Of a stretch of 64,000 nucleotides of DNA, positions 8,014 through 56,435 are shown piece after piece. The DNA lies in contig CAZBAS010000001.1 in assembly GCA_964490395.1 (NCBI GenBank), positions 275,815 to 339,814 of the forward strand, written 5' to 3'. The notes under the pieces are model-generated. The model searched no databases. It was not told the DNA's origin and was given only the letters and a program-made list of their open reading frames with translations. Position 1 is the first letter of the stretch. Each line of letters starts with the position of its first letter. A program made the translations under genes and the position numbers. The DNA is from an uncultured Candidatus Saccharibacteria bacterium. GTDB taxonomy: Bacteria > Patescibacteriota > Doudnabacteria > UBA920.

Positions 8014-9093
8014 ATGGAACTAACAGATTTCCCAGTTTTTAAAACTAAGACCGAAGGGGTAACGCAGGGCTTTGACTTAAACCACCCAAGCGGAAGACAG
8101 GAGTACTTTAAAGCCAAGGCAGGTCCAGAAATAGAAAAACTAAAAGCGTATTTGGCCGAAAAGTCATTTGTGGCTTTCCTGTTGGGTAAGAAAAACTCGG
8201 GAAAGGGTACCTACACAAAACTATTTATGGAAGCAGTTGGTGCTGAGCACGTTGCCCATATTTCTGTAGGTGACTTGGTTCGTGATGCGCATACTATATT
8301 CGAAACTGGTGCTGGCCGCGATGAGCTCGTTGCCTTTCTTGAGAAAGAATACCGCGGTTTCCACGGGGTAGAAATGGTAGAGGATATTATTCTCGGGAAA
8401 AACCAGGCTACACTATTGTCTTCTGAGCTTATTCTTGCTCTTATAAAGTACGAAATAAGCAAGCGACCAAAGCAGGCTATTTTTGTAGACGGTTTCCCTC
8501 GCGCTTTTGACCAGATTGGGTATTCGCTGTTCATGAAGGAAATTATTGGATATCGTAACGATCCAGACTTCTTCGTGTTCATAAGCGTACCAAATGCAAT
8601 AATTGATGAACGCATTAAGTACCGTGTTATTTGCCCTGTATGCAAAACGCCTCGTAACATGAAGTTACTTGCTACACGAGACGTAGGGTATGACGAAGAG
8701 CTTGATCAATTCTTCTTGAGGTGCGATAACTCGAATTGCTCTGCCCAGGGCACACGCATGGTTGGAAAAGAAGGGGACGAGCTTGGTATAGAGCCAATTC
8801 GCGAGCGCATAGAAACGGACAACCAGATATTCAAGCAACTCTTGCAGCTTAAGGGTGTGCCTCAGGTATATCTCCGTAACTCAGTACCTGTAGACCAGGC
8901 CGCAACGAGTGTAGACGAATATGAGCTTACTCCTGAATACCACTACCAGCGAAACCCAGAAACCGGCGAAATTAAAACTCTTGAAAAGCCGTGGACTGTA
9001 AAAGATGATGCAGGGGTAGAGTCATATAGCCTCATGCCATCGGCTGTTGCGCTTTCGTTAATTAAGCAGGTCGCAACAACACTCGGGTTATAA
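8014..9093 (+). CDS. Adenylate kinase-like nucleoside monophosphate kinase (long form with Cys4 LID)
   Basis: P-loop GKKNSGKGT, C-x2-C...C-x5-C LID-like zinc motif; longer than canonical Adk. Confidence 0.5.
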   Translation: MELTDFPVFKTKTEGVTQGFDLNHPSGRQEYFKAKAGPEIEKLKAYLAEKSFVAFLLGKKNSGKGTYTKLFMEAVGAEHVAHISVGDLVRDAHTIFETGAGRDELVAFLEKEYRGFHGVEMVEDIILGKNQATLLSSELILALIKYEISKRPKQAIFVDGFPRAFDQIGYSLFMKEIIGYRNDPDFFVFISVPNAIIDERIKYRVICPVCKTPRNMKLLATRDVGYDEELDQFFLRCDNSNCSAQGTRMVGKEGDELGIEPIRERIETDNQIFKQLLQLKGVPQVYLRNSVPVDQAATSVDEYELTPEYHYQRNPETGEIKTLEKPWTVKDDAGVESYSLMPSAVALSLIKQVATTLGL

Positions 9094-11185: not shown

Positions 11186-11728
11186 TTAGTTTTGTGCGAA
11201 GTATGACTCAGCATCATTGAGCAAGTTGAGGCTCCGTCTTACAGTCTCGCCCCACTCTGCTTTCGAAGTGTCTTCGGGTCTTGTGTGCTTTGCTATGAGC
11301 AGTTTTGCTTGTAAGGCAAGTTCTTTTTGCGTCTCGTTTGAAGTGATGATGGTGTTATGTATAAAAACCATCCCATTTTCTGTCGCCTTAATTTGCCTTG
11401 ATTCCTTGATTTCTGATATCGCTAGCATTTGTCCAAATGCCAGCTGCCTAGGGCTCGCCCAACGCATAGTGTAAACAGAGCCTTTTATCACGCAAATTGT
11501 TAGCAATATATCGCCGGGAAGTTGAATATTCATCTTCAAGGTGGGGCCGTCTGAGGATTTTGCTAGCACGACATTGCTTGGGCCTAAATTCTGCTCTTCC
11601 ATAATCTCTCCTGTAGCTTTTGCGAAGAAATAAAAGCCAGACCAATCGTGGCCTGACAAATTACAGGGTAAGTATATTCTTTTTTCAAGGTTTGGCAATG
11701 GTATATTCTTTACACTTTTCTCATTCAA
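11186..11728 (-). CDS. Hypothetical protein (TTG start in track; start uncertain)
   Basis: ORF only; no recognizable motifs. Confidence 0.3.
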   Translation of the reverse strand: MNEKSVKNIPLPNLEKRIYLPCNLSGHDWSGFYFFAKATGEIMEEQNLGPSNVVLAKSSDGPTLKMNIQLPGDILLTICVIKGSVYTMRWASPRQLAFGQMLAISEIKESRQIKATENGMVFIHNTIITSNETQKELALQAKLLIAKHTRPEDTSKAEWGETVRRSLNLLNDAESYFAQN

Positions 11729-11743
11729 CTTTACACTGCATTT

Positions 11744-12781
11744 ATGCCAGAACTACCTGAAGTTGAGACTGTTGTTTCGGAATTGCATAAAAAGCTGAAA
11801 GGGAAAACCATTGCTTCGGTTGAAGTGCGAAAACCAAAGCTTATTAGTGTTGGGCCAAAGACTGTTTCGAACATTCGTAAAGTGAGTAAGAGCAAAGTAA
11901 AAATATTTCAGGAATTATTAGCTGGGCAGAAAGTTGTTTCGGTGAAACGGAGGGCGAAGTTGTTGATATTTGATTTGGACCGTAGTCTCACCCCCTCTAA
12001 CTCCCCCTTAGAAAAGGGGAGAACAAGAGAAAATACCTTTGGTCCTGCCCCTCTCCTTTCTAAGGAGAGGCTGGGTGTGGTGAAAGAAACTGGTTCATTA
12101 TCAATGCTCGTGCATTTGAAAATGACCGGACAGTTTATATGCGAAAACAAGGCGCTTCGTAAAAAAACAAATGGCAAATATAGAATTCTAAACAGGCCAA
12201 CAGCGCCACTCGTACAGCTGCCCTGTAAGTTTACGCATGTAATTTTCCATTTTTCAGATGAGTCAACGCTTTACTTTAATGACATGCGCCAGTTCGGCTA
12301 TCTAAAAATAGTGCGCGATGATGAGATTGGCCGAGTCCGCGAACTGAAAGAATTTGGTCCTGAACCTTTCTCAAAAGAGTTCACGTGCGAAAAGTTTAAG
12401 GCTGCAGTAAAAAAGAGGATTAAGTCACCTATTAAGCTTGTGCTCATGGACCCTAAAGTCGTGGCGGGAATAGGGAATATATATAGCGATGAAATTTTAT
12501 TTCATGCAGGCGTACGGCCAGAGCGGCTCGTATCAAGAATTAAGAATCAAGAATTAAGCAAAATCTATGAAGCCATACGGCCCATCCTAAAGAAAGGGAT
12601 AGAGGCTAAAGGCTCAAGTGTAGGAGACTTTGTACGTACCGACGGCACCTGGGGCCAGATGGGAAAATATCATTTTGTGTATGGCCGTAAAGGAGAAGAC
12701 TGCAAACGTTGTGGTACTATAATAGAAAGCACAAAGCTCGGCGGCCGCACCGCAAGCTTCTGCCCGAAGTGCCAGGTATAG
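11744..12781 (+). CDS. fpg: Formamidopyrimidine-DNA glycosylase family (Fpg/Nei) carrying an in-frame roughly 40-aa palindromic insertion
   Basis: MPELPEVETV N-terminus (catalytic Pro2/Glu3), C-terminal zinc finger CxxC...CxxC; extra segment 11990-12110. Confidence 0.85.
   Translation: MPELPEVETVVSELHKKLKGKTIASVEVRKPKLISVGPKTVSNIRKVSKSKVKIFQELLAGQKVVSVKRRAKLLIFDLDRSLTPSNSPLEKGRTRENTFGPAPLLSKERLGVVKETGSLSMLVHLKMTGQFICENKALRKKTNGKYRILNRPTAPLVQLPCKFTHVIFHFSDESTLYFNDMRQFGYLKIVRDDEIGRVRELKEFGPEPFSKEFTCEKFKAAVKKRIKSPIKLVLMDPKVVAGIGNIYSDEILFHAGVRPERLVSRIKNQELSKIYEAIRPILKKGIEAKGSSVGDFVRTDGTWGQMGKYHFVYGRKGEDCKRCGTIIESTKLGGRTASFCPKCQV
11995..12075. repeat. Two adjacent perfect/near-perfect hairpins inside fpg CDS (CTCCCCCTTAGAAAAGGGGAG and CCTCTCCTTTCTAAGGAGAGG)
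   Basis: Palindromes read directly; in frame within fpg. Confidence 0.8.
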
Positions 12782-12799
12782 AATTATGAATTACGAATT

Positions 12800-13018
12800 A
12801 TGAATCAAGAAAATAGTGTTGAATTTTCTGATCGTGAGATGTTGCTGGAAATTTTAGAACATTCTCGCAAAACAAAAAACTACATAAAGTGGCAACTTAT
12901 TATTACGGTTGCGTTGGTTGTTGTGCCTTTGCTTGCTATGGGTGTAATTTTGCCTATTGCGCTGAAGTCCCTGGGGTCGGTTTATGGCAGTGGCGGGATA
13001 TTAGAGGGGATTCAATAA
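12800..13018 (+). CDS. Small membrane protein (72 aa)
   Basis: One hydrophobic helix; ORF only. Confidence 0.35.
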   Translation: MNQENSVEFSDREMLLEILEHSRKTKNYIKWQLIITVALVVVPLLAMGVILPIALKSLGSVYGSGGILEGIQ

Positions 13019-13089
13019 CATAGGACTTATATGCCATATAGGCCCTATAGGACAAATAGGTCTTATATTCTTTTCACCTAATTCATAAC

Positions 13090-13123
13090 CCGCCTCTTCG
13101 GCGGACATGCCGATGAGGCATGG
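13090..13123. repeat. Intergenic double-hairpin element (CCGCCTCTTCGGCGGAC + CATGCCGATGAGGCATGG); 17-mer identical to copy inside CDS at 55450
   Basis: Exact 17-nt match to 55450-55466; two stem-loops. Confidence 0.8.
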
Positions 13124-13149
13124 TTCTTTATTCGTAATACTATCTACCT

Positions 13150-13473
13150 ATGACCGAAGAAAAATGGGATCAGATGTGTGAAATGCTTGAGGACAAATAC
13201 CCTGACCTTGAGCGATATAGAGAAAATTTAGAAGGGGAGCATGGGGGCGTGCAAGAGGTGCTAGAGTTTGAAGGGCCGGCTGGGCCAATGCGTGTAGTGC
13301 GTACGAGCAAGCCAGCGGTAACAGGCGTGGAGCACCACTATTCGCATCGTCAGGGGGCGACTGCTAGTACGGAATACAAATACTCAGACAGCGAAATGGC
13401 GCACAAAGTAAAAGTCTACCGAGAAGTAGGTGGTGAGTGGGAAGAAATGGATGCAAGCAGTATGGGATTCTAG
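13150..13473 (+). CDS. Small acidic hypothetical protein (107 aa)
   Basis: ORF only. Confidence 0.35.
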   Translation: MTEEKWDQMCEMLEDKYPDLERYRENLEGEHGGVQEVLEFEGPAGPMRVVRTSKPAVTGVEHHYSHRQGATASTEYKYSDSEMAHKVKVYREVGGEWEEMDASSMGF

Positions 13474-14553: not shown

Positions 14554-14587
14554 TTACATTGACGAATCTGCGAATGGAACGAATGTT

Positions 14588-14649
14588 ACGAATAACTGCG
14601 AATCTAGAGACCGTATAAATGCGGTCTGTCGATATTCGCAGTTATTCGT
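14588..14649. terminator. Bidirectional terminator element: 16-bp perfect inverted repeat ACGAATAACTGCGAAT/ATTCGCAGTTATTCGT around inner hairpin GACCGTATAAATGCGGTC
   Basis: Between convergent genes; same 16-mer recurs at 40899-40914. Confidence 0.7.
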
Positions 14650-14690
14650 TGTATTCGTCTATTCGTAGGATTCGTCAACACACCAGCCGT

Positions 14691-15548
14691 CTATGCCTTT
14701 GTAAACTCTAACACTAGAATTATGGGAAACCTGTGGAGCTGGTAGGTGAGGTTGTAGCTGTTACTGTCGGTAGGGCTTTGGATGTCCTCTAGACCTGTAA
14801 GGGTAAGCCCAGCCTGTGCCGCGTTTCTTATGTGCGTGGAGAGGGGAGTAAAATGTGATCCAAGATTTGGGCGCCATTCGAAGTTTGGTCGGTTTTGCCG
14901 CATCATTTCATTGTAGAACCGTGCAAGTCGCAGGTGCGGTTTTTTCATAAGCAAGCGCCCAACAATCCCACGTTTCCATTCACCAATGGGGTACCCATAG
15001 TAGGGGTTTACAATGCTGGCAAGTAGTGTGCCGCCTGGTTTTAAAACTTCTGTAATGTGGGTTAAGGTAGCGAGCTCGTCTTCAACATCATGTATAACCA
15101 TGCTCGCTGTGACTACATCGAAACTGTCTTTTTCGTAGGGGAGGGGCCTATTTAAGTCGCACACTGTAAAATGCACTTCTGGATATTTTGTTTTCGCAAG
15201 TTCTATAAGCGGCGCTCCTGCATCGCAGGCAAAAACAGTAATAGTGTCATTCTGAGCCGCCCTGGGCGAAGAATCTGTATTGCGAGATTCTTCCACCGCC
15301 GCTAAAGCTATGGCGGACAAGTCGGTCGCCAGGCCTCCCTCAGAATGACGGAAAAAATTAGATAAAAGCCCTGCCAGCCAGCCATCGCCGCATCCCGCGT
15401 CTAATATCCGCATTGGTTGTTGCGAGCTCCCAGCTATTTTTTGCAAAAACGTTTTACCCAATACTTCTCGAAAAATCTTTCCGTCTTCAGAATCCAAAAA
15501 ATGTTGATATGCAGTACTCGCTGCGCCGCTATTGTATGAGTGGTCCAT
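14691..15548 (-). CDS. Class I SAM-dependent methyltransferase carrying an in-frame 114-bp palindromic insertion
   Basis: Motif I ILDAGCGDGWLAG; Rossmann methyltransferase order; insertion at 15246-15359. Confidence 0.75.
   Translation of the reverse strand: MDHSYNSGAASTAYQHFLDSEDGKIFREVLGKTFLQKIAGSSQQPMRILDAGCGDGWLAGLLSNFFRHSEGGLATDLSAIALAAVEESRNTDSSPRAAQNDTITVFACDAGAPLIELAKTKYPEVHFTVCDLNRPLPYEKDSFDVVTASMVIHDVEDELATLTHITEVLKPGGTLLASIVNPYYGYPIGEWKRGIVGRLLMKKPHLRLARFYNEMMRQNRPNFEWRPNLGSHFTPLSTHIRNAAQAGLTLTGLEDIQSPTDSNSYNLTYQLHRFPIILVLEFTKA
15246..15359. repeat. 114-bp GC-rich element with 11-bp terminal inverted repeats (GTCATTCTGAG/CTCAGAATGAC) and inner 9-bp IR, inside the methyltransferase CDS, in frame
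   Basis: Length is a multiple of 3; contains GCTAAAGCTATGGCGG matching intergenic 13509. Confidence 0.8.
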
Positions 15549-15845: not shown

Positions 15846-16163
15846 GCTGCCTCCTTTCTTTTATACTCGATTTATTTGCCTTAGACAATGATCCGGTTTT
15901 GCTCTGGTCATATCGTGGTCAGTACGTCTTCGTGCTCTTGAATAATACGTCCCCCGACTTTGGTCGGGGAGATGTATCTTGCCAATAGAAATGGCAGGAC
16001 AAAACAGCATACTCTTATTTATATAAAAAACAAGGGTGAACATTCTTGACACCCATCGTTGTTTTGCTAAACTATTATCAGTCGAAGTGGTTGAGTGATA
16101 GATTTATATTACTTTTCCGCTTATCTAATTGAAAAATAAGTAATTAATACATCATAAACAGAT

Positions 16164-19511: not shown

Positions 19512-19560
19512 AAGCTTCTTAGCTTGTAGCTAGTTAGCTTATTAGGAATAACCATTCCGA

Positions 19561-19608
19561 GCTAAAAAGCTAAAAAGCTAAAAAGCTAAAAAGCTAAAAA
19601 GCTAAAAA
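19561..19608. repeat. Tandem 8-mer repeat (GCTAAAAA)x6 ending exactly at the nusB start codon
   Basis: Six perfect units read directly. Confidence 0.9.
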
Positions 19609-20046
19609 ATGGCCAATCGTCATCTATCTAGAACAGTTGCAATGCAAACTCTCTTTGAGTGGGACTTTAACGCCCAAGAGCAGTCTTTAGATGACCTAGT
19701 CCAACTTAATCTTGAACAGTTTGCGCCCGGAATGGACGACCATGCTTTTGTGAAAAGTTTGGTTAGTGGCGTTGTGCAACATCTTGCTGAAATTGATGGC
19801 ATTATTACCGCAACGGCGCCTGAATGGCCTATAGAGCAAATTAGTAGCGTTGATAGAAGTGTTCTCAGGCTTGGCATATATGAACTCGAGTTCTTAAAAG
19901 AAGTTCCTCCTAAGGTTGCTATAAACGAAGCAGTTGAACTTGCTAAAACATTCGGCGGCGAAACAAGCGGCAAGTTTGTGAATGGGGTACTGGGAACACT
20001 GTACAAAAAATTATATCCTACCGATTCTGTAGAAACGCAGCAGTAA
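19609..20046 (+). CDS. nusB: Transcription antitermination factor NusB
   Basis: NusB family sequence. Confidence 0.85.
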
Positions 20047-20676: not shown

Positions 20677-20714
20677 TGGCGTAAGCCAGACGAAGCTTCA
20701 GCGAAGTCTGGTGC
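20677..20714. repeat. 37/38-nt motif GGCGTAAGCCAGACGAAGC-N5-GCGAAGTCTGGTGC, direct-repeat copy of the sequence abutting tRNA-Arg (45011-45047), ending in a tRNA-3'-end-like GCACCA (complement)
   Basis: Near-identical to 45011-45047; followed on minus strand by GGTATCCCGC resembling tRNA-Gly acceptor 3' strand. Confidence 0.7.
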
Positions 20715-37620: not shown

Positions 37621-37740
37621 GCAATGCAGAATTATGAAGTCAGAATTATGAATTATGAGAATGCATGTGAGGTGCCTTGCGGTTTTTTCTCGTCCGACTG
37701 TATTCATAATTCAATATTCTTAATTCTGTATTTTATGGTA
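37621..37740 (+). terminator. Word-based hairpin terminator (CAGAATTATGAA x2 ... TTCATAATTC) plus GCGGTTTTTTCTCG
   Basis: Inverted repeats and T-run after the sugar transferase gene; the GAATTATGAA word recurs at 12781. Confidence 0.55.
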
Positions 37741-37787: not shown

Positions 37788-39530
37788 ATGGATACGCCCG
37801 CCCTTGTTACTCTGCTGAAACAAAAAAAGATTGTAAGTGCCGACACTATTGCACTTTTGCAAAAAGACCCTGCTACCACTGCTGGTAACTGGGAAGATTT
37901 GTTATTGGAAAAAGGGGGAGTGAAAGAGGAACAGCTGCTTGCGGTAAAAAGCGAACTGCTAAAAATCCCTATTGCTGATTTGCGTAATGAGCGCATAGAT
38001 CAAGATATTTTACAGTTAGTACCTGAGCCCATAGCCCATCGCCATAAGGTTATAAGTTTTGGCAAAGGCAAGGACGGTTTGCATCTGGCCATGGTAGATC
38101 CGCTCGATCTGCAGACTAAAGAGTTTATACAAAAGAAAACTGGGCTACCGATTGTTGTATTTTTAATCGGCAAAACCAGTCTAGATTTTGGTCTTTCCAA
38201 ATATCACAGTAACCTTGAGGGTGAGATAAAGCATTTGGTAAGTGGTGAGTCTACCATCAAAACCGACTCAGATAAGCCCGATGAAGTAGAGGGTCTGAAA
38301 AAGATGGCTGGAGAAATTCCAGTTATTCGTGTTGTTGAGACTCTTCTTGAGTACGCAATCTTTGAGAAAGCTTCAGATATCCATGTAGAGCCACAAGAAA
38401 CATCGCTTACGGTTAGATACCGTATTGATGGTATTTTGCACGATGTTATGACGCTTCCTAAGATGATACAGCCAGCGCTGGTTGCTCGTATTAAAGTGCT
38501 TTCCGATCTTAAGATAGACGAACATCGTTTGCCGCAAGATGGACGATTTAAAGTTGAAAAAGACGGCTACAAGTTTTCTTTGCGCGTTTCTACTATCCCG
38601 GTCTTTGATGGTGAAAAAGTGGTTATGCGTTTACTTGATGAGTCTACTAAGGCCATGAGTCTTGAGCAGCTGGGTTTTCTTTCCGAGCAGCTTGAAATTG
38701 TGCACCGCAATATTCATAAACCGCACGGTATGTTCTTGGTTACGGGGCCTACCGGAAGTGGTAAATCCACGACTTTGTATGCAGTTATTACGCTGCTTAA
38801 TAGTGCCAGCGTAAATATTTCCACCATAGAAGATCCTGTTGAATATCGGATAGAGCGGGCAAACCAAATGCAGGTGAATCCTAAAATTGGTCTCACTTTT
38901 GCCATGGGGCTGCGCGCATTGCTGAGACAAGATCCAAACATTATTATGATTGGTGAAATTCGTGACTCTGAAACAGCCGAAGAAGCTGTCCATGCTGCCA
39001 TGACTGGTCACGTCGTGCTTTCTACCCTGCACACAAACAGTGCTGCTGGCGCCATGCCTCGTTTGCTTGATATTGGAGTTGAGGCATACTTAATTGCATC
39101 AACAACGAATGCAGTTATGGCACAGCGTCTAGTTCGTGTTCTCTGCCCAGAGTGCAACCAAGCGTTTAAGCCAGATGCCGCGTACATTGAAATGCTCGCG
39201 AAAACATTTAACTTAGAGTCCATAATGGCGTTGTATAAGAAGCGGGGTATGCTCAAAGCGGGCGCAGAGCGTTTTGAAGATTTGGAATTTCGAAAACCAG
39301 TGGGCTGCGACAAGTGCGGGTCCTCAGGCTATAAAGGGCGCATTGGTATACACGAGCTTTTAGAAGTGACTCCGGAAATTTCTGATTTGATTGTGCAGAA
39401 AAAAACAGCACAAGAAATTCAGGAGGTTGCGGAAAAGTCCGGCATGATTCTTATGTGGCAAGATGGATTTATTAAGTCACTTCTTGGCACCACGACCCTT
39501 GATGAAGTATTGAGAGTATCTAAAGAGTAA
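37788..39530 (+). CDS. pilB: Type IV pilus assembly ATPase PilB (GspE family)
   Basis: Walker A GPTGSGKSTTLY, Asp/His boxes, Cys4 zinc motif CPEC...CDKC. Confidence 0.9.
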   Translation: MDTPALVTLLKQKKIVSADTIALLQKDPATTAGNWEDLLLEKGGVKEEQLLAVKSELLKIPIADLRNERIDQDILQLVPEPIAHRHKVISFGKGKDGLHLAMVDPLDLQTKEFIQKKTGLPIVVFLIGKTSLDFGLSKYHSNLEGEIKHLVSGESTIKTDSDKPDEVEGLKKMAGEIPVIRVVETLLEYAIFEKASDIHVEPQETSLTVRYRIDGILHDVMTLPKMIQPALVARIKVLSDLKIDEHRLPQDGRFKVEKDGYKFSLRVSTIPVFDGEKVVMRLLDESTKAMSLEQLGFLSEQLEIVHRNIHKPHGMFLVTGPTGSGKSTTLYAVITLLNSASVNISTIEDPVEYRIERANQMQVNPKIGLTFAMGLRALLRQDPNIIMIGEIRDSETAEEAVHAAMTGHVVLSTLHTNSAAGAMPRLLDIGVEAYLIASTTNAVMAQRLVRVLCPECNQAFKPDAAYIEMLAKTFNLESIMALYKKRGMLKAGAERFEDLEFRKPVGCDKCGSSGYKGRIGIHELLEVTPEISDLIVQKKTAQEIQEVAEKSGMILMWQDGFIKSLLGTTTLDEVLRVSKE

Positions 39531-39532
39531 CA

Positions 39533-39578
39533 AGTTTATAAAGTCCATAAAGTTCGTAAAGTAATACTTTATAAACTT
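39533..39578. repeat. Second copy of AGTTTATAAAGTCCATAAAGT...ACTTTATAAACT hairpin, between pilB and pilC
   Basis: Identical 21-mer and same 12-bp inverted repeat as 1859. Confidence 0.8.
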
Positions 39579-39607
39579 TCTACTTTAGAAACCTTACGAA
39601 CTGACGA

Positions 39608-40822: not shown

Positions 40823-40950
40823 TAATGTTGACGAATATACAAATAAGAACGAATAAAACGAATGTCTACGAATATAATATTGACCGTTTTATTTATGGAT
40901 TCGCAGTTATTCGTAATATTCGATAATTTGTAGATTCGTCTACGCCTGAT

Positions 40951-44990: not shown

Positions 44991-45041
44991 TTTTCGCAAA
45001 TATTGTATGTGGCGTAAGCCAGACGAAGCCTTGGCGAAGTC

Positions 45042-45118
45042 TGGTGCACCCGGCAGGATTTGAACCTGCTACCTCTTGGTTCGAAGCCAAGCACTCTATC
45101 CAAATGAGCTACGGGTGC
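45042..45118 (-). tRNA. tRNA-Arg (anticodon UCG), CCA encoded
   Basis: Manual cloverleaf: acceptor GCACCCG/CGGGTGC, anticodon stem CTTGG/CCAAG, loop CTTCGAA. Confidence 0.85.
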
Positions 45119-46172: not shown

Positions 46173-46323
46173 CATAATGACAAAAGTTAAAAAAGTGACA
46201 AAAATGACAAGAATTAAATGTTTTTGTCATTTTTATTTATTTTTGCTCATTTTTGTCATTTAGAATTGTGTTACAATTCTAATATAGTCATTATGCCCCT
46301 GTGGGCAAAAAGTAAGAAATAAA

Positions 46324-55097: not shown

Positions 55098-56435
55098 ATG
55101 CAGTATCTACTCGTAATAACGTTATTGGTTGCCCCTACTTACGCCATTCGTTTTGAGTTGTTTGGTTTACCGACGAACGTCCTTATGGTGTGGGTGTTCG
55201 TTGCTTGGTTTGTATTTGCTCTATGGCTTTTCGCTCGTCATAAATTTGCTAATCTTTTTCACTGGCTTCGTTCTGAGCTTGTTACTTGGCATGGTATACT
55301 TGCCGCTGTATTTTTTCTTGTAGGGGTAATTTCTCTTTTTGTTGGTGGATTCTCAGAGGAAAAGCTCGGCCAATTTCTCGTCCTCTTCTTCCAGCCGGTC
55401 GGCACTTTTATACTATTGCGCTATTTGTCTTCTATTGAAAATTGGAAATCCGCCTCTTCGGCGGACCAGCCAAAGAGGCTGGTTGGAAATGTGCTGACAC
55501 ACACAGCGTTGCTATTTGTATCAGTTGCTGGTCTCTATGCCATAGTCCAATATTTTACCCTCATTGGTGTGCCTGTCGCGTGGTGGGGTAACAGCGAAGA
55601 GCCAAAACGAGCAGTGGCGTTTTTCATGCATCCAAATTTTTATGCGCTGTTCATCACGCCGCTTTTGGCGTTCTTGCTACCCATAGTTAGTGGCCAGTGG
55701 CTGAAACAGGCAAGACAGGTGCACTCCGGTCCCTCTCCTCGCGAGCAGAGGTTACGTGAGATCACAGAAAAGCATTGTGATGCACCAGGGGTTTCTAAGA
55801 CCTCCTCCAACTCCTCATCACGAGGAGGAGGACAGGGCCTACTCACTACTTCCGCCTTGCTTCTCGGTGCAGTTGGCCTTTTGCTGTCTTTGTCCCGTGG
55901 CGGCTGGCTGGGCCTTGCTGCTGCGATTGGCGCCTATATTCTCATTACTGGAAATCGCACACTATTAAAACGCGCGGCCGCGCTTTTTGCTATTTCACTC
56001 ATTGTGGTACTCGCGGTGCCGAACTTTCGTTATAGGATACTGCTGCCATTCCGCGGGGAAAAATCGACCGTCGCACGGTTCTCTCTGTGGAATACCGGAT
56101 GGAAAATGGTTACAGATAGTCCGGTATTGGGTAAGGGTCTCTTGGGGTTTAGTAATAACTGGTATGCGTACAATACCGATTCAGGCCTACAACATTACCC
56201 AGCGCCGCACAATATTGTTTTAAATTTTTGGATAGACACAGGACTCCTTGGTCTCATATCCTTTTTTTGCCTGCTCGTGCTCGCCGCAGTTCGGAGTCTT
56301 AAAGACCGTGATAACGTGTACAAGCTTGGCCTCCTGCTTGCCTGCATTGCGCTGGTAGTCCATGGTCTCGTTGACATTCCCTATTTCAAAAATGACCTAG
56401 CATTACTGTTTTGGATGTTGTATAGTTTTATTTAA
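55098..56435 (+). CDS. O-antigen ligase/polymerase family membrane protein carrying two in-frame GC-rich palindromic insertions
   Basis: Wzy_C-like LSLSRGGWLGLAAAIG region; polytopic. Confidence 0.65.
   Translation: MQYLLVITLLVAPTYAIRFELFGLPTNVLMVWVFVAWFVFALWLFARHKFANLFHWLRSELVTWHGILAAVFFLVGVISLFVGGFSEEKLGQFLVLFFQPVGTFILLRYLSSIENWKSASSADQPKRLVGNVLTHTALLFVSVAGLYAIVQYFTLIGVPVAWWGNSEEPKRAVAFFMHPNFYALFITPLLAFLLPIVSGQWLKQARQVHSGPSPREQRLREITEKHCDAPGVSKTSSNSSSRGGGQGLLTTSALLLGAVGLLLSLSRGGWLGLAAAIGAYILITGNRTLLKRAAALFAISLIVVLAVPNFRYRILLPFRGEKSTVARFSLWNTGWKMVTDSPVLGKGLLGFSNNWYAYNTDSGLQHYPAPHNIVLNFWIDTGLLGLISFFCLLVLAAVRSLKDRDNVYKLGLLLACIALVVHGLVDIPYFKNDLALLFWMLYSFI
55450..55482. repeat. 33-bp double-hairpin element inside the ligase CDS, identical 17-mer to intergenic 13090; flanked by direct repeat (A/G)TTGGAAAT
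   Basis: CCGCCTCTTCGGCGGAC + CCAGCCAAAGAGGCTGG; TTGGAAAT at 55442-55449 and 55483-55490; 33+9=42 bp keeps the frame. Confidence 0.85.
55790..55850. repeat. Second polypyrimidine/polypurine palindrome (CCTCCTCC...GGAGGAGG) inside the ligase CDS
   Basis: Inverted repeat; encodes low-complexity SSNSSSRGGGQG segment. Confidence 0.55.

Follow-up and report, generated by a model that had tools for sequence, protein, structure and literature searches.

A 33-nucleotide double-hairpin repeat of Candidate Phyla Radiation bacteria, found in frame in an O-antigen ligase gene

Rickettsia palindromic elements (RPEs) are palindromic repeats of ~100–150 bp that are tolerated in frame in open reading frames (ORFs) and translated as an extra peptide in surface regions (PMC10969869, which also lists terminator-like repeats, e.g. 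SPRITE), and repetitive extragenic palindromes (REPs) are 20–40-nt palindromes, one end of which carries a conserved tetranucleotide, GTAG or CGTC (PMC3733652). Mitochondria offer further examples: the double-hairpin elements of Allomyces (Paquin, Laforest and Lang 2000, as cited in PMC4478555) and the GC clusters of yeast, among them GC42, which has an AG target site and is present in many copies per genome (PMC4478555). Here, we analyze a 33-nt double-hairpin element that lies in frame in an O-antigen ligase (Wzy_C) gene within a 64,000-nt stretch of contig CAZBAS010000001.1 (hereafter, the window), together with an intergenic copy in the same stretch; its host is an uncultured bacterium of the Candidate Phyla Radiation (CPR) that is similar, by homologues and synteny, to Candidatus Doudnabacteria. 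A first-pass annotation of the sequence had proposed that such an element is undescribed for this kind of genome, and the literature searched bears this out for CPR/Patescibacteria: nothing relevant was found on Patescibacteria or the CPR combined with palindromic elements, transposable elements of the miniature inverted-repeat type (MITEs) or REPs. The family is previously uncatalogued, and the surprise is moderate, not high.

The element resembles REP/REPIN sequences, RPEs and mitochondrial double-hairpin elements, and is a member of none of them. It shares with RPEs the placement of a non-coding palindromic repeat in frame in unrelated housekeeping ORFs (here the ligase and an arginyl-tRNA synthetase, ArgRS, with hairpin 1 alone in MurE-, SecF- and S16-like ORFs). 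RPEs, however, are many-copy, very often intragenic and confined to Rickettsia, whereas the element is sparse, mostly intergenic and found in CPR phyla; it is set apart from RPE-1 to RPE-10 by its length (33 nt) and its CPR host. The RPE-like behavior proposed at first pass therefore holds for the in-frame insertions in the ligase and ArgRS, but not for abundance, ORF preference or membership of the RPEs. By analogy, the architecture appears closest to REP/REPIN and IS200/IS605-type hairpin ends. As in REPs and REPINs, a GC-rich imperfect palindrome of 20–40 nt has inverted halves that fold as two hairpins or as one long one (the REPIN architecture); as in both REP/REPIN and IS200/IS605, target-site duplication is lacking, and the T or AAT flank resembles the IS200/IS605 target tetranucleotide. 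Unlike REPs, the element has no GTAG/CGTC head (its 5′ flanks are AT or CT, and the other strand reads GTAG in one copy only, at locus L024), is low-copy and is not strictly extragenic (one of the two window copies is intragenic). No RAYT or TnpA gene was seen among the 58 window ORFs scanned.

With MITEs derived from DDE transposases the element has terminal inverted repeats in common (the 11-nt arms GCCTCTTCGGC/GCCGAAGAGGC), but not a target-site duplication of fixed length. With intrinsic terminators it shares a GC-rich stem-loop and, in some copies, a T-run, and the intergenic window copy fits the consensus; most copies, however, lack the T-run, many stand upstream of genes, and the ligase copy is intragenic and was not flagged on either strand in a terminator-consensus scan. 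The nearest analogues in form would be the Allomyces elements and the yeast GC clusters, which are likewise tiny, GC-rich and mostly intergenic, with two hairpins in an AT-richer genome, conserved stems, signs of mobility and no known enzyme. Mitochondrial double-hairpin elements also occur in coding regions. They differ in being organellar and eukaryotic, with no sequence relationship to the element, and in their freer loops, whereas the hairpin 1 loop is conserved here.

The ligase copy and its intergenic counterpart

The element consists of two consecutive hairpins (Table 1), the first of which, together with an AC linker (55465–55466 in the ligase copy), makes up the 17-mer CCGCCTCTTCGGCGGAC; a sixth hairpin 1 pair, T55449 with A55465, is possible in the ligase copy. 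The first-pass annotation had placed this 17-mer at two sites, one of them intergenic, and exactly two matches were found, at 13090–13106 and 55450–55466, with no other in the window even at three or fewer mismatches. Shuffled sequences give an expectation of 0.04, and none of 100 shuffles reached two matches. The intergenic copy lies between ORFs 12800–13018 and 13150–13473, 71 nt after the first and 27 nt before the second. A second hairpin had also been noted behind each 17-mer, and is seen at both: in the intergenic copy it is CATGCC-GATGA-GGCATG (13106–13122), and all six positions at which the two copies differ fall within it, with compensatory changes on both sides of the outer two pairs (A–T to C–G and T–A to A–T). 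Both copies fold more stably than shuffled sequences, with z = −2.6 (ligase copy) and z = −4.1 (intergenic copy). The claim that the element is more GC-rich than its host gene is correct (69.7% against 47% for the remainder of the gene and 45% for the window), and its 11 codons contain no stop in any of the six frames. When the window was searched with a covariance model of the family (R1, filters off), the ligase copy was the top match at 59.9 bits, and no third member was found in the window by this model, a direct-repeat scan or a GC-hairpin scan. The unit also has an 11-6-11 resemblance to Xer/dif core sites.

The ligase frame reads through the element as SASSADQPKRLV, 12 residues (118–129; (S)ASSADQPKRL(V)) that lie in a hydrophilic stretch flanked by hydrophobic helices predicted from hydropathy at 87–112 and 124–154. 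The ligase has hundreds of homologues, and the named ones come from Candidatus Doudnabacteria and other Patescibacteria. An alignment of orthologues, a check set beforehand for the proposed insertion, found the segment absent from 31 of 31 (45–69% identity), so the ligase element is an insertion, as had been supposed. Its size was overstated at 42 bp and ~14 added residues: the 33-nt unit encodes 12 residues that stand in place of three, a net gain over the orthologues of 27 nt (nine residues). Among the 71 homologues that have both anchor motifs, 66 are without the segment; the loop measures 43–48 residues in these 66 and exactly 44 or 47 in 61 of them, compared to 56 in the window protein. 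In an AlphaFold2 model of the ligase (mean predicted local distance difference test score, pLDDT, of 83), pLDDT is 61–65 at residues 111–130 and ~90 on either side. The ligase element is an insertion into a tolerant inter-helix loop, and this loop is an insertion hotspot, with unrelated insertions in four other homologues, or in five of the 71 by another count. A separate Logan assembly of run SRR12487046, which possibly shares reads with the assembly of the window, has the identical gene, element included, arguing against an assembler-specific artefact.

Two further inserts in ligase genes were noted. The orthologue P0004 (locus L083, 10304–10336) carries a different GC-rich hairpin, CAACCCGCCTTGACTCGCGTCGGGCGAGGCAGG, likewise of 33 nt and within the same heptamer array (see below); considered as a relative of the element, it matches at 13 of 33 positions and was treated as an independent insert, and no second copy of it was found among the fetched loci. 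The window ligase itself has a second hypervariable insertion at 55738–55871 (residues 214–258; QARQVHSGPSPREQRLREITEKHCDAPGVSKTSSNSSSRGGGQG, 55% GC, hairpin-rich), which includes the lowest pLDDT of the model (50, at residues 231–240) and at which the orthologues have unrelated inserts of 0–60 residues.

The ligase copy is bordered by TTGGAAAT on each flank (55442–55449 and 55483–55490), a repeat that the first-pass annotation had reported and likened to a target-site duplication. The DNA of six ligase orthologues was compared codon by codon at this position. Insert-free orthologues contain three to five tandem ATTGGAA or ATTAGAA heptamers encoding NWKLEIGN (e.g. ATT GGA AAT TGG AAA TTG GAA ATT GGA), and the window reads AAT TGG AAA T[33 nt]TT GGA AAT, with the element placed between array units. 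The repeat is real, but because the heptamer array pre-exists in the orthologues its two flanking copies were not made by the insertion.

A dispersed family and its gain or loss between genomes

One genome per species (185,579 species) was scanned for the 17-mer followed by NNGCC (22 bases), giving 81 loci. The low-GC matches were mostly from the CPR, and seven had the full double hairpin; the high-GC matches (Actinomycetota, Proteobacteria and others) lacked hairpin 2 and were set aside as chance or coding-sequence matches. Searching metagenomes with the complete pattern gave eight further loci, bringing the total to 16 distinct full copies, each exactly 33 nt, from Doudnabacteria, Paceibacterota, Saccharibacteria, Zambryskiibacteriota and unnamed CPR metagenome-assembled genomes (MAGs) or metagenome contigs. 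Their consensus is hairpin 1 CCGCC-UCUUC-GGCGG, the AC linker and hairpin 2 NNGCC-GANGA-GGCNN, with CCGCCTCTTCGGCGGAC invariant in all 16, as the search pattern demanded. In the 16-copy alignment the two-hairpin structure has 98.8% of cells paired, compared to 18–50% when the 3′ partners are slid, and hairpin 2 covaries: two pairs are altered on both sides, one position shows A–U, C–G, U–A and G–C, and the observed covariation score was reached by none of 500 shuffles. As hairpin 2 is approximately the reverse complement of hairpin 1, the whole unit may also fold as one long hairpin; the 11-nt arms, GCCTCTTCGGC on the left and GCCGAAGAGGC, are mutual reverse complements in consensus copies, and the alternative single 13-bp hairpin is 92% paired with a frequent central mismatch, its left half being fixed by the search pattern.

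When R1 was run over ~265 kb of fetched loci, a few diverged copies were found. The one in L094 after a tRNA-Trp gene (GGGCC-TCTTC-GGCCC AT CCGCC-GTTGA-GGCGG) keeps the TCTTC loop on a fully compensated hairpin 1 stem, and another, in L004, reads CCGCC-AAA-GGCGG AC CCGCC-TTT-GGCGGG. The ligase copy is 1 nt from the copy in L024 and 2 nt from five copies of other genomes, but 6 nt from its genome-mate at 13090, and this greater proximity to other CPR lineages argues against a local origin. Taken at the level of sequence, the alignments demonstrate that the dispersed double-hairpin family is real. Several other identities were considered and rejected. Rfam matched only tRNAs in the window and nothing at the element in 17 loci, ruling out a known RNA family. 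A longer element with the hairpins as its ends is not supported, as a search for a distant hairpin 2 around the lone hairpin 1 copies found one only in L004, 59 nt off and part of an adjacent second double hairpin. The sole IMG/VR match, which might have pointed to a viral vector, is a chance match of coding type at 68% GC, and if the element came from rRNA or some other conserved RNA gene, hundreds of CPR matches would be expected among the 185,579 genomes, where ~15 were obtained. Outside the CPR, hairpin 1 (CCGCCTCTTCGGCGGACACGCCC) was seen right after a conserved stretch in L011, L013, L064, L071, L074 and L075 (Sphingobacteriia/Chitinophagales), this stretch matching Flavo-1 RNA (RF01705) in L071, and an Elusimicrobia MAG has three lone hairpin 1 copies (L006, L017 and L018); these occurrences indicate that hairpin 1 is also a stand-alone module outside the CPR.

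The first-pass annotation had expected a dispersed hairpin family that also occupies intergenic DNA, and 14 of the 16 full copies are indeed intergenic. In seven cases a full copy lies 4–57 nt upstream of the start of an opposite-strand gene; Pfam confirms these genes as rpmE, rplC, rbfA, rplL, groES, one for a response regulator and one for a TSP3-repeat protein. A copy in L095 is arranged likewise with respect to rplU, which starts ~30 nt away, and one more copy is in a tRNA-Thr leader (L094). Seven copies have the reverse orientation to the neighboring gene and two or three the forward one, and a T-run follows some copies, most being without one. In L050 and L091 the copy begins directly after the stop codon of a NusA-like gene (named from a reading of the sequence). 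The two copies are identical at 33 of 33 positions, in neighboring coding DNA that is 70–92% identical per 50 nt; this single orthologous pair of copies in untranslated regions (n = 1) hints at constraint on, or recent homogenization of, untranslated copies. In the tRNA-Thr leader of L094 (12718–12790, minus strand), a duplicate of the tRNA's initial 12 nt, ACGCCGTTGTAG, stands just upstream of the element, and a diverged double hairpin is found ~1 kb away (11622–11661).

No adjacent flanking repeat was found in 14 of the 16 copies, the two exceptions being the heptamer array of the ligase and the 12-nt copy of the tRNA 5′ end in L094; across the aligned copies, this demonstrates that the insertions proceed without target-site duplication. 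The base at position −1 is T in 14 of the 16 copies and the preceding triplet is AAT in seven of them, a bias that points to a preferred insertion context.

Gain or loss can be followed in L056 (Candidatus Doudnabacteria nzgw381), which is syntenic with the window over 9.5–18.3 kb and shares with it the genes for RelA/SpoT, Fpg, a 107-aa protein, a nucleotidyltransferase-like protein, a methyltransferase, groES and groEL (the last two identified by Pfam). The L056 groES leader has the 33-mer between ...CCAAAAT and the CIRCE half-site TTAGCACTC, at a point matching the window junction 16101|16102, where the window reads ...ATAAAT|CTATCACTC with nothing in between. Conversely, no counterpart of the copy at 13090 is present upstream of the orthologous 107-aa gene in L056, and neither filled site in this comparison shows a duplication. 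Filled and empty sites of this kind indicate a unit gained or lost whole, and the syntenic comparison thus shows the 33-mer, as judged from the DNA, to be present or absent as a block. A promoter-like pair, TTGACA...TAAACT, precedes the CIRCE-like repeat upstream of groES-groEL in the window.

With two of 16 full copies intragenic (in the ligase and ArgRS) and ~89% of the window coding, ORF insertions are rare survivors, not the norm. The ArgRS copy, found in a Paceibacterota genome (L031, a GTDB MAG) and identical in a JGI metagenome locus (L093), is read in the same frame as the ligase copy (SASSADQPMRLG) and adds a net 12 nt. An ArgRS at 83% identity has no element, and one at 86% amino-acid identity (P0122) has a mutated copy, SVSSADQLKRLG, with 6 of 33 nt changed: two changes turn C–G pairs into G–U, and two in hairpin 2 leave one G–U pair and break another. 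The substitution rates of the element (6/33) and the flanking codons (7/36) are equivalent, indicating that the in-ORF copy drifts like neutral or protein-constrained sequence; within this one orthologous pair (n = 1), the comparison shows the copy to be decaying. Hairpin 1 alone occurs in six further ORFs, in frame as SASSAD[KR]P in MurE-like, SecF-like, S16 and one other ORF (named from their translations, not by Pfam) and on the other strand, read as SAEEA, in two more.

Table 1. Coordinates of the element, its parts and associated features in the window
Feature	Position	Strand	Basis
33-nt double-hairpin element, in frame inside O-antigen-ligase (Wzy_C) gene	55450..55482	+	sequence; absent in orthologues
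Hairpin 1 of ligase copy, CCGCC-TCTTC-GGCGG	55450..55464	+	sequence
Hairpin 2 of ligase copy, CCAGCC-AAAGA-GGCTGG	55466..55482	+	stem covaries across family
Left part of heptamer array (ATTGAAA ATTGGAA AT), encodes IENWK	55434..55449	+	orthologues have ATTGGAA/ATTAGAA x3-5 here
Right part of heptamer array, TTGGAAAT	55483..55490	+	array unbroken in insert-free orthologues L084, L087, L088
Host gene, O-antigen ligase family (Wzy_C), 445 aa	55098..56435	+	Pfam E = 1.4e-21
Intergenic 33-nt copy	13090..13122	+	sequence; covariance-model match 58.1 bits
Hairpin 2 of 13090 copy with GTTCTTTATT	13106..13132	+	fits intrinsic-terminator consensus (consensus scan only)
Empty site, groES leader with CIRCE-like operator TTATCAGTC-N9-GAGTGATAG (16075-16101)	16075..16110	+	synteny, sequence

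Mechanism and competing explanations

On balance, we lean towards an element that is a small non-coding double-hairpin repeat of CPR/Patescibacteria, copied as a 33-nt block without target-site duplication and carried in the ligase as a translated passenger. The unit would be copied into new sites as a discrete block, usually landing just after a T and often after AAT, and one copy would have landed in the heptamer array that encodes the short loop between two ligase membrane helices. The ligase would have stayed open because the unit comprises 11 codons free of stops in all six frames, and the element would be translated in its mildest frame (SASSADQPKRLV) with no role in the protein. Spread may have been driven by a trans-acting enzyme that recognizes the hairpins in single-stranded DNA and is closest to the HUH/Y1 transposases of IS200/IS605 ends and of REP/REPIN; it is the two inverted half-palindromes, the lack of duplication and the short preferred flank that suggest, with low confidence, a mover of the HUH type. 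A number of observations weigh against this account. A Pfam scan of 58 ORFs, confined to the 64 kb of the window, returned ordinary housekeeping genes and no transposase, integrase or HUH protein. Copy number is low, at two per 64 kb (R1, filters off), unlike the proliferating REP, RPE or MITE families, and a single locus per CPR-labeled genome matched the exact 22-base pattern. A function in cis rather than pure selfishness is suggested by the unchanged L050/L091 copy amid diverged coding DNA, and by the clustering of copies 4–57 nt upstream of rpmE, rplC, rplL, rplU, rbfA, groES and tRNA-Thr. The in-ORF elements replace some local sequence (a net gain of 27 nt for the ligase and of 12 nt for ArgRS), so that additional indels are needed, and exact-match searching accounts in part for hairpin 1 being invariant.

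Some of these observations would be accommodated if the double hairpin were, above all, a functional module, RNA or DNA, in CPR untranslated regions, and the ligase copy an accidental, non-functional misplacement by recombination or copying. The module might stabilize mRNA at the 5′/3′ end, serve as a processing site, assist a terminator or bind a protein close to translation genes with high expression, and we consider this main rival possible though rather unlikely. It would fit the 14 intergenic copies, eight of them 4–57 nt upstream of translation genes, groES, a response regulator or tRNA-Thr, the covariation of hairpin 2, and the L050/L091 copy that is conserved while the adjoining coding DNA has diverged by 8–30% per 50 nt. 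It would fit, too, the diverged L094 copy that retains its TCTTC loop on a different, fully compensated stem (GGGCC/GGCCC), the terminator consensus at 13090, and the tracts of CCUC paired with GAGG, similar to anti-Shine-Dalgarno and Shine-Dalgarno sequences. However, the loci themselves are not conserved (the window groES leader is without the element and L056 is without the 13090 copy), orientation to the neighboring gene varies, the U-run is found in some copies only, no Rfam family corresponds, and identical 33-mers in unrelated contexts would still need a copying mechanism. A functional module and a copied repeat overlap, moreover, and one does not exclude the other.

The remaining explanations carry much less weight. 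An RPE- or MITE-type transposable element that makes an 8–9-bp target-site duplication was suggested by TTGGAAAT on both sides of the ligase copy, by the 11-bp arms GCCTCTTCGGC and GCCGAAGAGGC, which are like terminal inverted repeats, and by the 12-nt direct repeat around the L094 copy, but is improbable: the heptamers are already tandem in element-free orthologues, the clean filled versus empty groES comparison shows no duplication, 14 of 16 copies have no adjacent flanking repeat, and the repeat in L094 duplicates the 5′ end of tRNA-Thr and, on one side, stands 9 nt off the element. It is more improbable still that the ligase copy arose locally, by slippage or template switching in the unstable heptamer array, and came to resemble the 13090 copy by convergence on a stable GC hairpin. 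That the loop is a hotspot of unrelated insertions, including the 33-nt GC hairpin in P0004, and that hairpin 1 occurs alone in unrelated bacteria (e.g. after Flavo-1 RNA in Sphingobacteriia) would be in its favor, yet a 33-nt match only 1–2 nt from the copies of other genomes and an exact shared 17-mer (0.04 expected) are not plausibly independent. An assembly or sequencing artefact is hardly credible, given that the Logan assembly has the identical gene, that the ArgRS copy is in both the GTDB MAG (L031) and the JGI contig (L093), and that the ligase ORF is open and its protein aligns on either side of the insert.

Other repeats in the window and significance of the element

Many intergenic spacers of the window (14560–14700, 40840–40945, 37628–37734, 39526–39600, 46190–46262, 19560–19615 and 13020–13068) are built from tandem 7–8-mers arranged as inverted arrays around a central hairpin. 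Their motifs mostly differ (ACGAATnn in two, and otherwise GAATTATG, TAAAGT, TGACAAAA, AGCTAAAA and ATAGGnCn); the core of the repeat unit is conserved, and the 2–3 bases between cores are non-complementary across the arms. The heptamer array of the ligase looks like the same kind of sequence, but in an ORF. A 38-nt repeat, TGGCGTAAGCCAGACGAAGC..GCGAAGTCTGGTGC, with a 6-bp stem (CCAGAC/GTCTGG), is found at 20677–20714 and 45010–45047 with 92% identity, the second copy abutting the 3′ end of a tRNA-Arg gene (45042–45118, minus strand). The Fpg ORF (11744–12781) has at 11990–12100 an in-frame insertion of 37 residues (111 nt), DRSLTPSNSPLEKGRTRENTFGPAPLLSKERLGVVKETG, in which CTCCCCCTTAGAAAAGGGGAG and CCTCTCCTTTCTAAGGAGAGG form two hairpins, giving the window a second and larger hairpin insertion in an ORF. 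The Fpg of L094 lacks it, as does the syntenic Fpg of L056, where another insertion, of ~10 residues, is found at a different point of the gene. In an adenylate-kinase-like ORF of 359 aa (8014–9090), only residues 130–255 match the ADK profile (positions 50–123 of 151); it is possibly one more case of a CPR protein carrying large insertions or extensions.

The genomes of CPR bacteria are tiny and thought to be poor in mobile elements, yet the proteins they encode are full of unexplained insertions. The ligase copy shows one tangible origin for them: a hairpin unit of 33 nt can land in a coding loop and just be translated. A 111-nt hairpin insertion is also present in the window Fpg, and relatives have independent inserts with hairpins in this same ligase loop. 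The unit provides a nucleotide signature that annotators could flag in CPR-specific protein insertions, a marker for strain-level comparison, and a small testable system both for the spread of hairpin repeats without a visible transposase and for a role in expression of the copies near ribosomal-protein genes. More tentatively, the family could represent a new class of ultra-small (33-nt) double-hairpin elements in CPR/Patescibacteria, with an invariant recognition hairpin and block movement without target duplication, which would cross phylum boundaries, settle preferentially in the leaders of translation-machinery genes and be kept there by selection, and now and then reshape loops in essential proteins (the Wzy-type ligase, ArgRS, MurE and SecF). 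If true, a new mobile class of this size would imply a hairpin-specific mobilizing enzyme or an RNA-level function in these reduced genomes.

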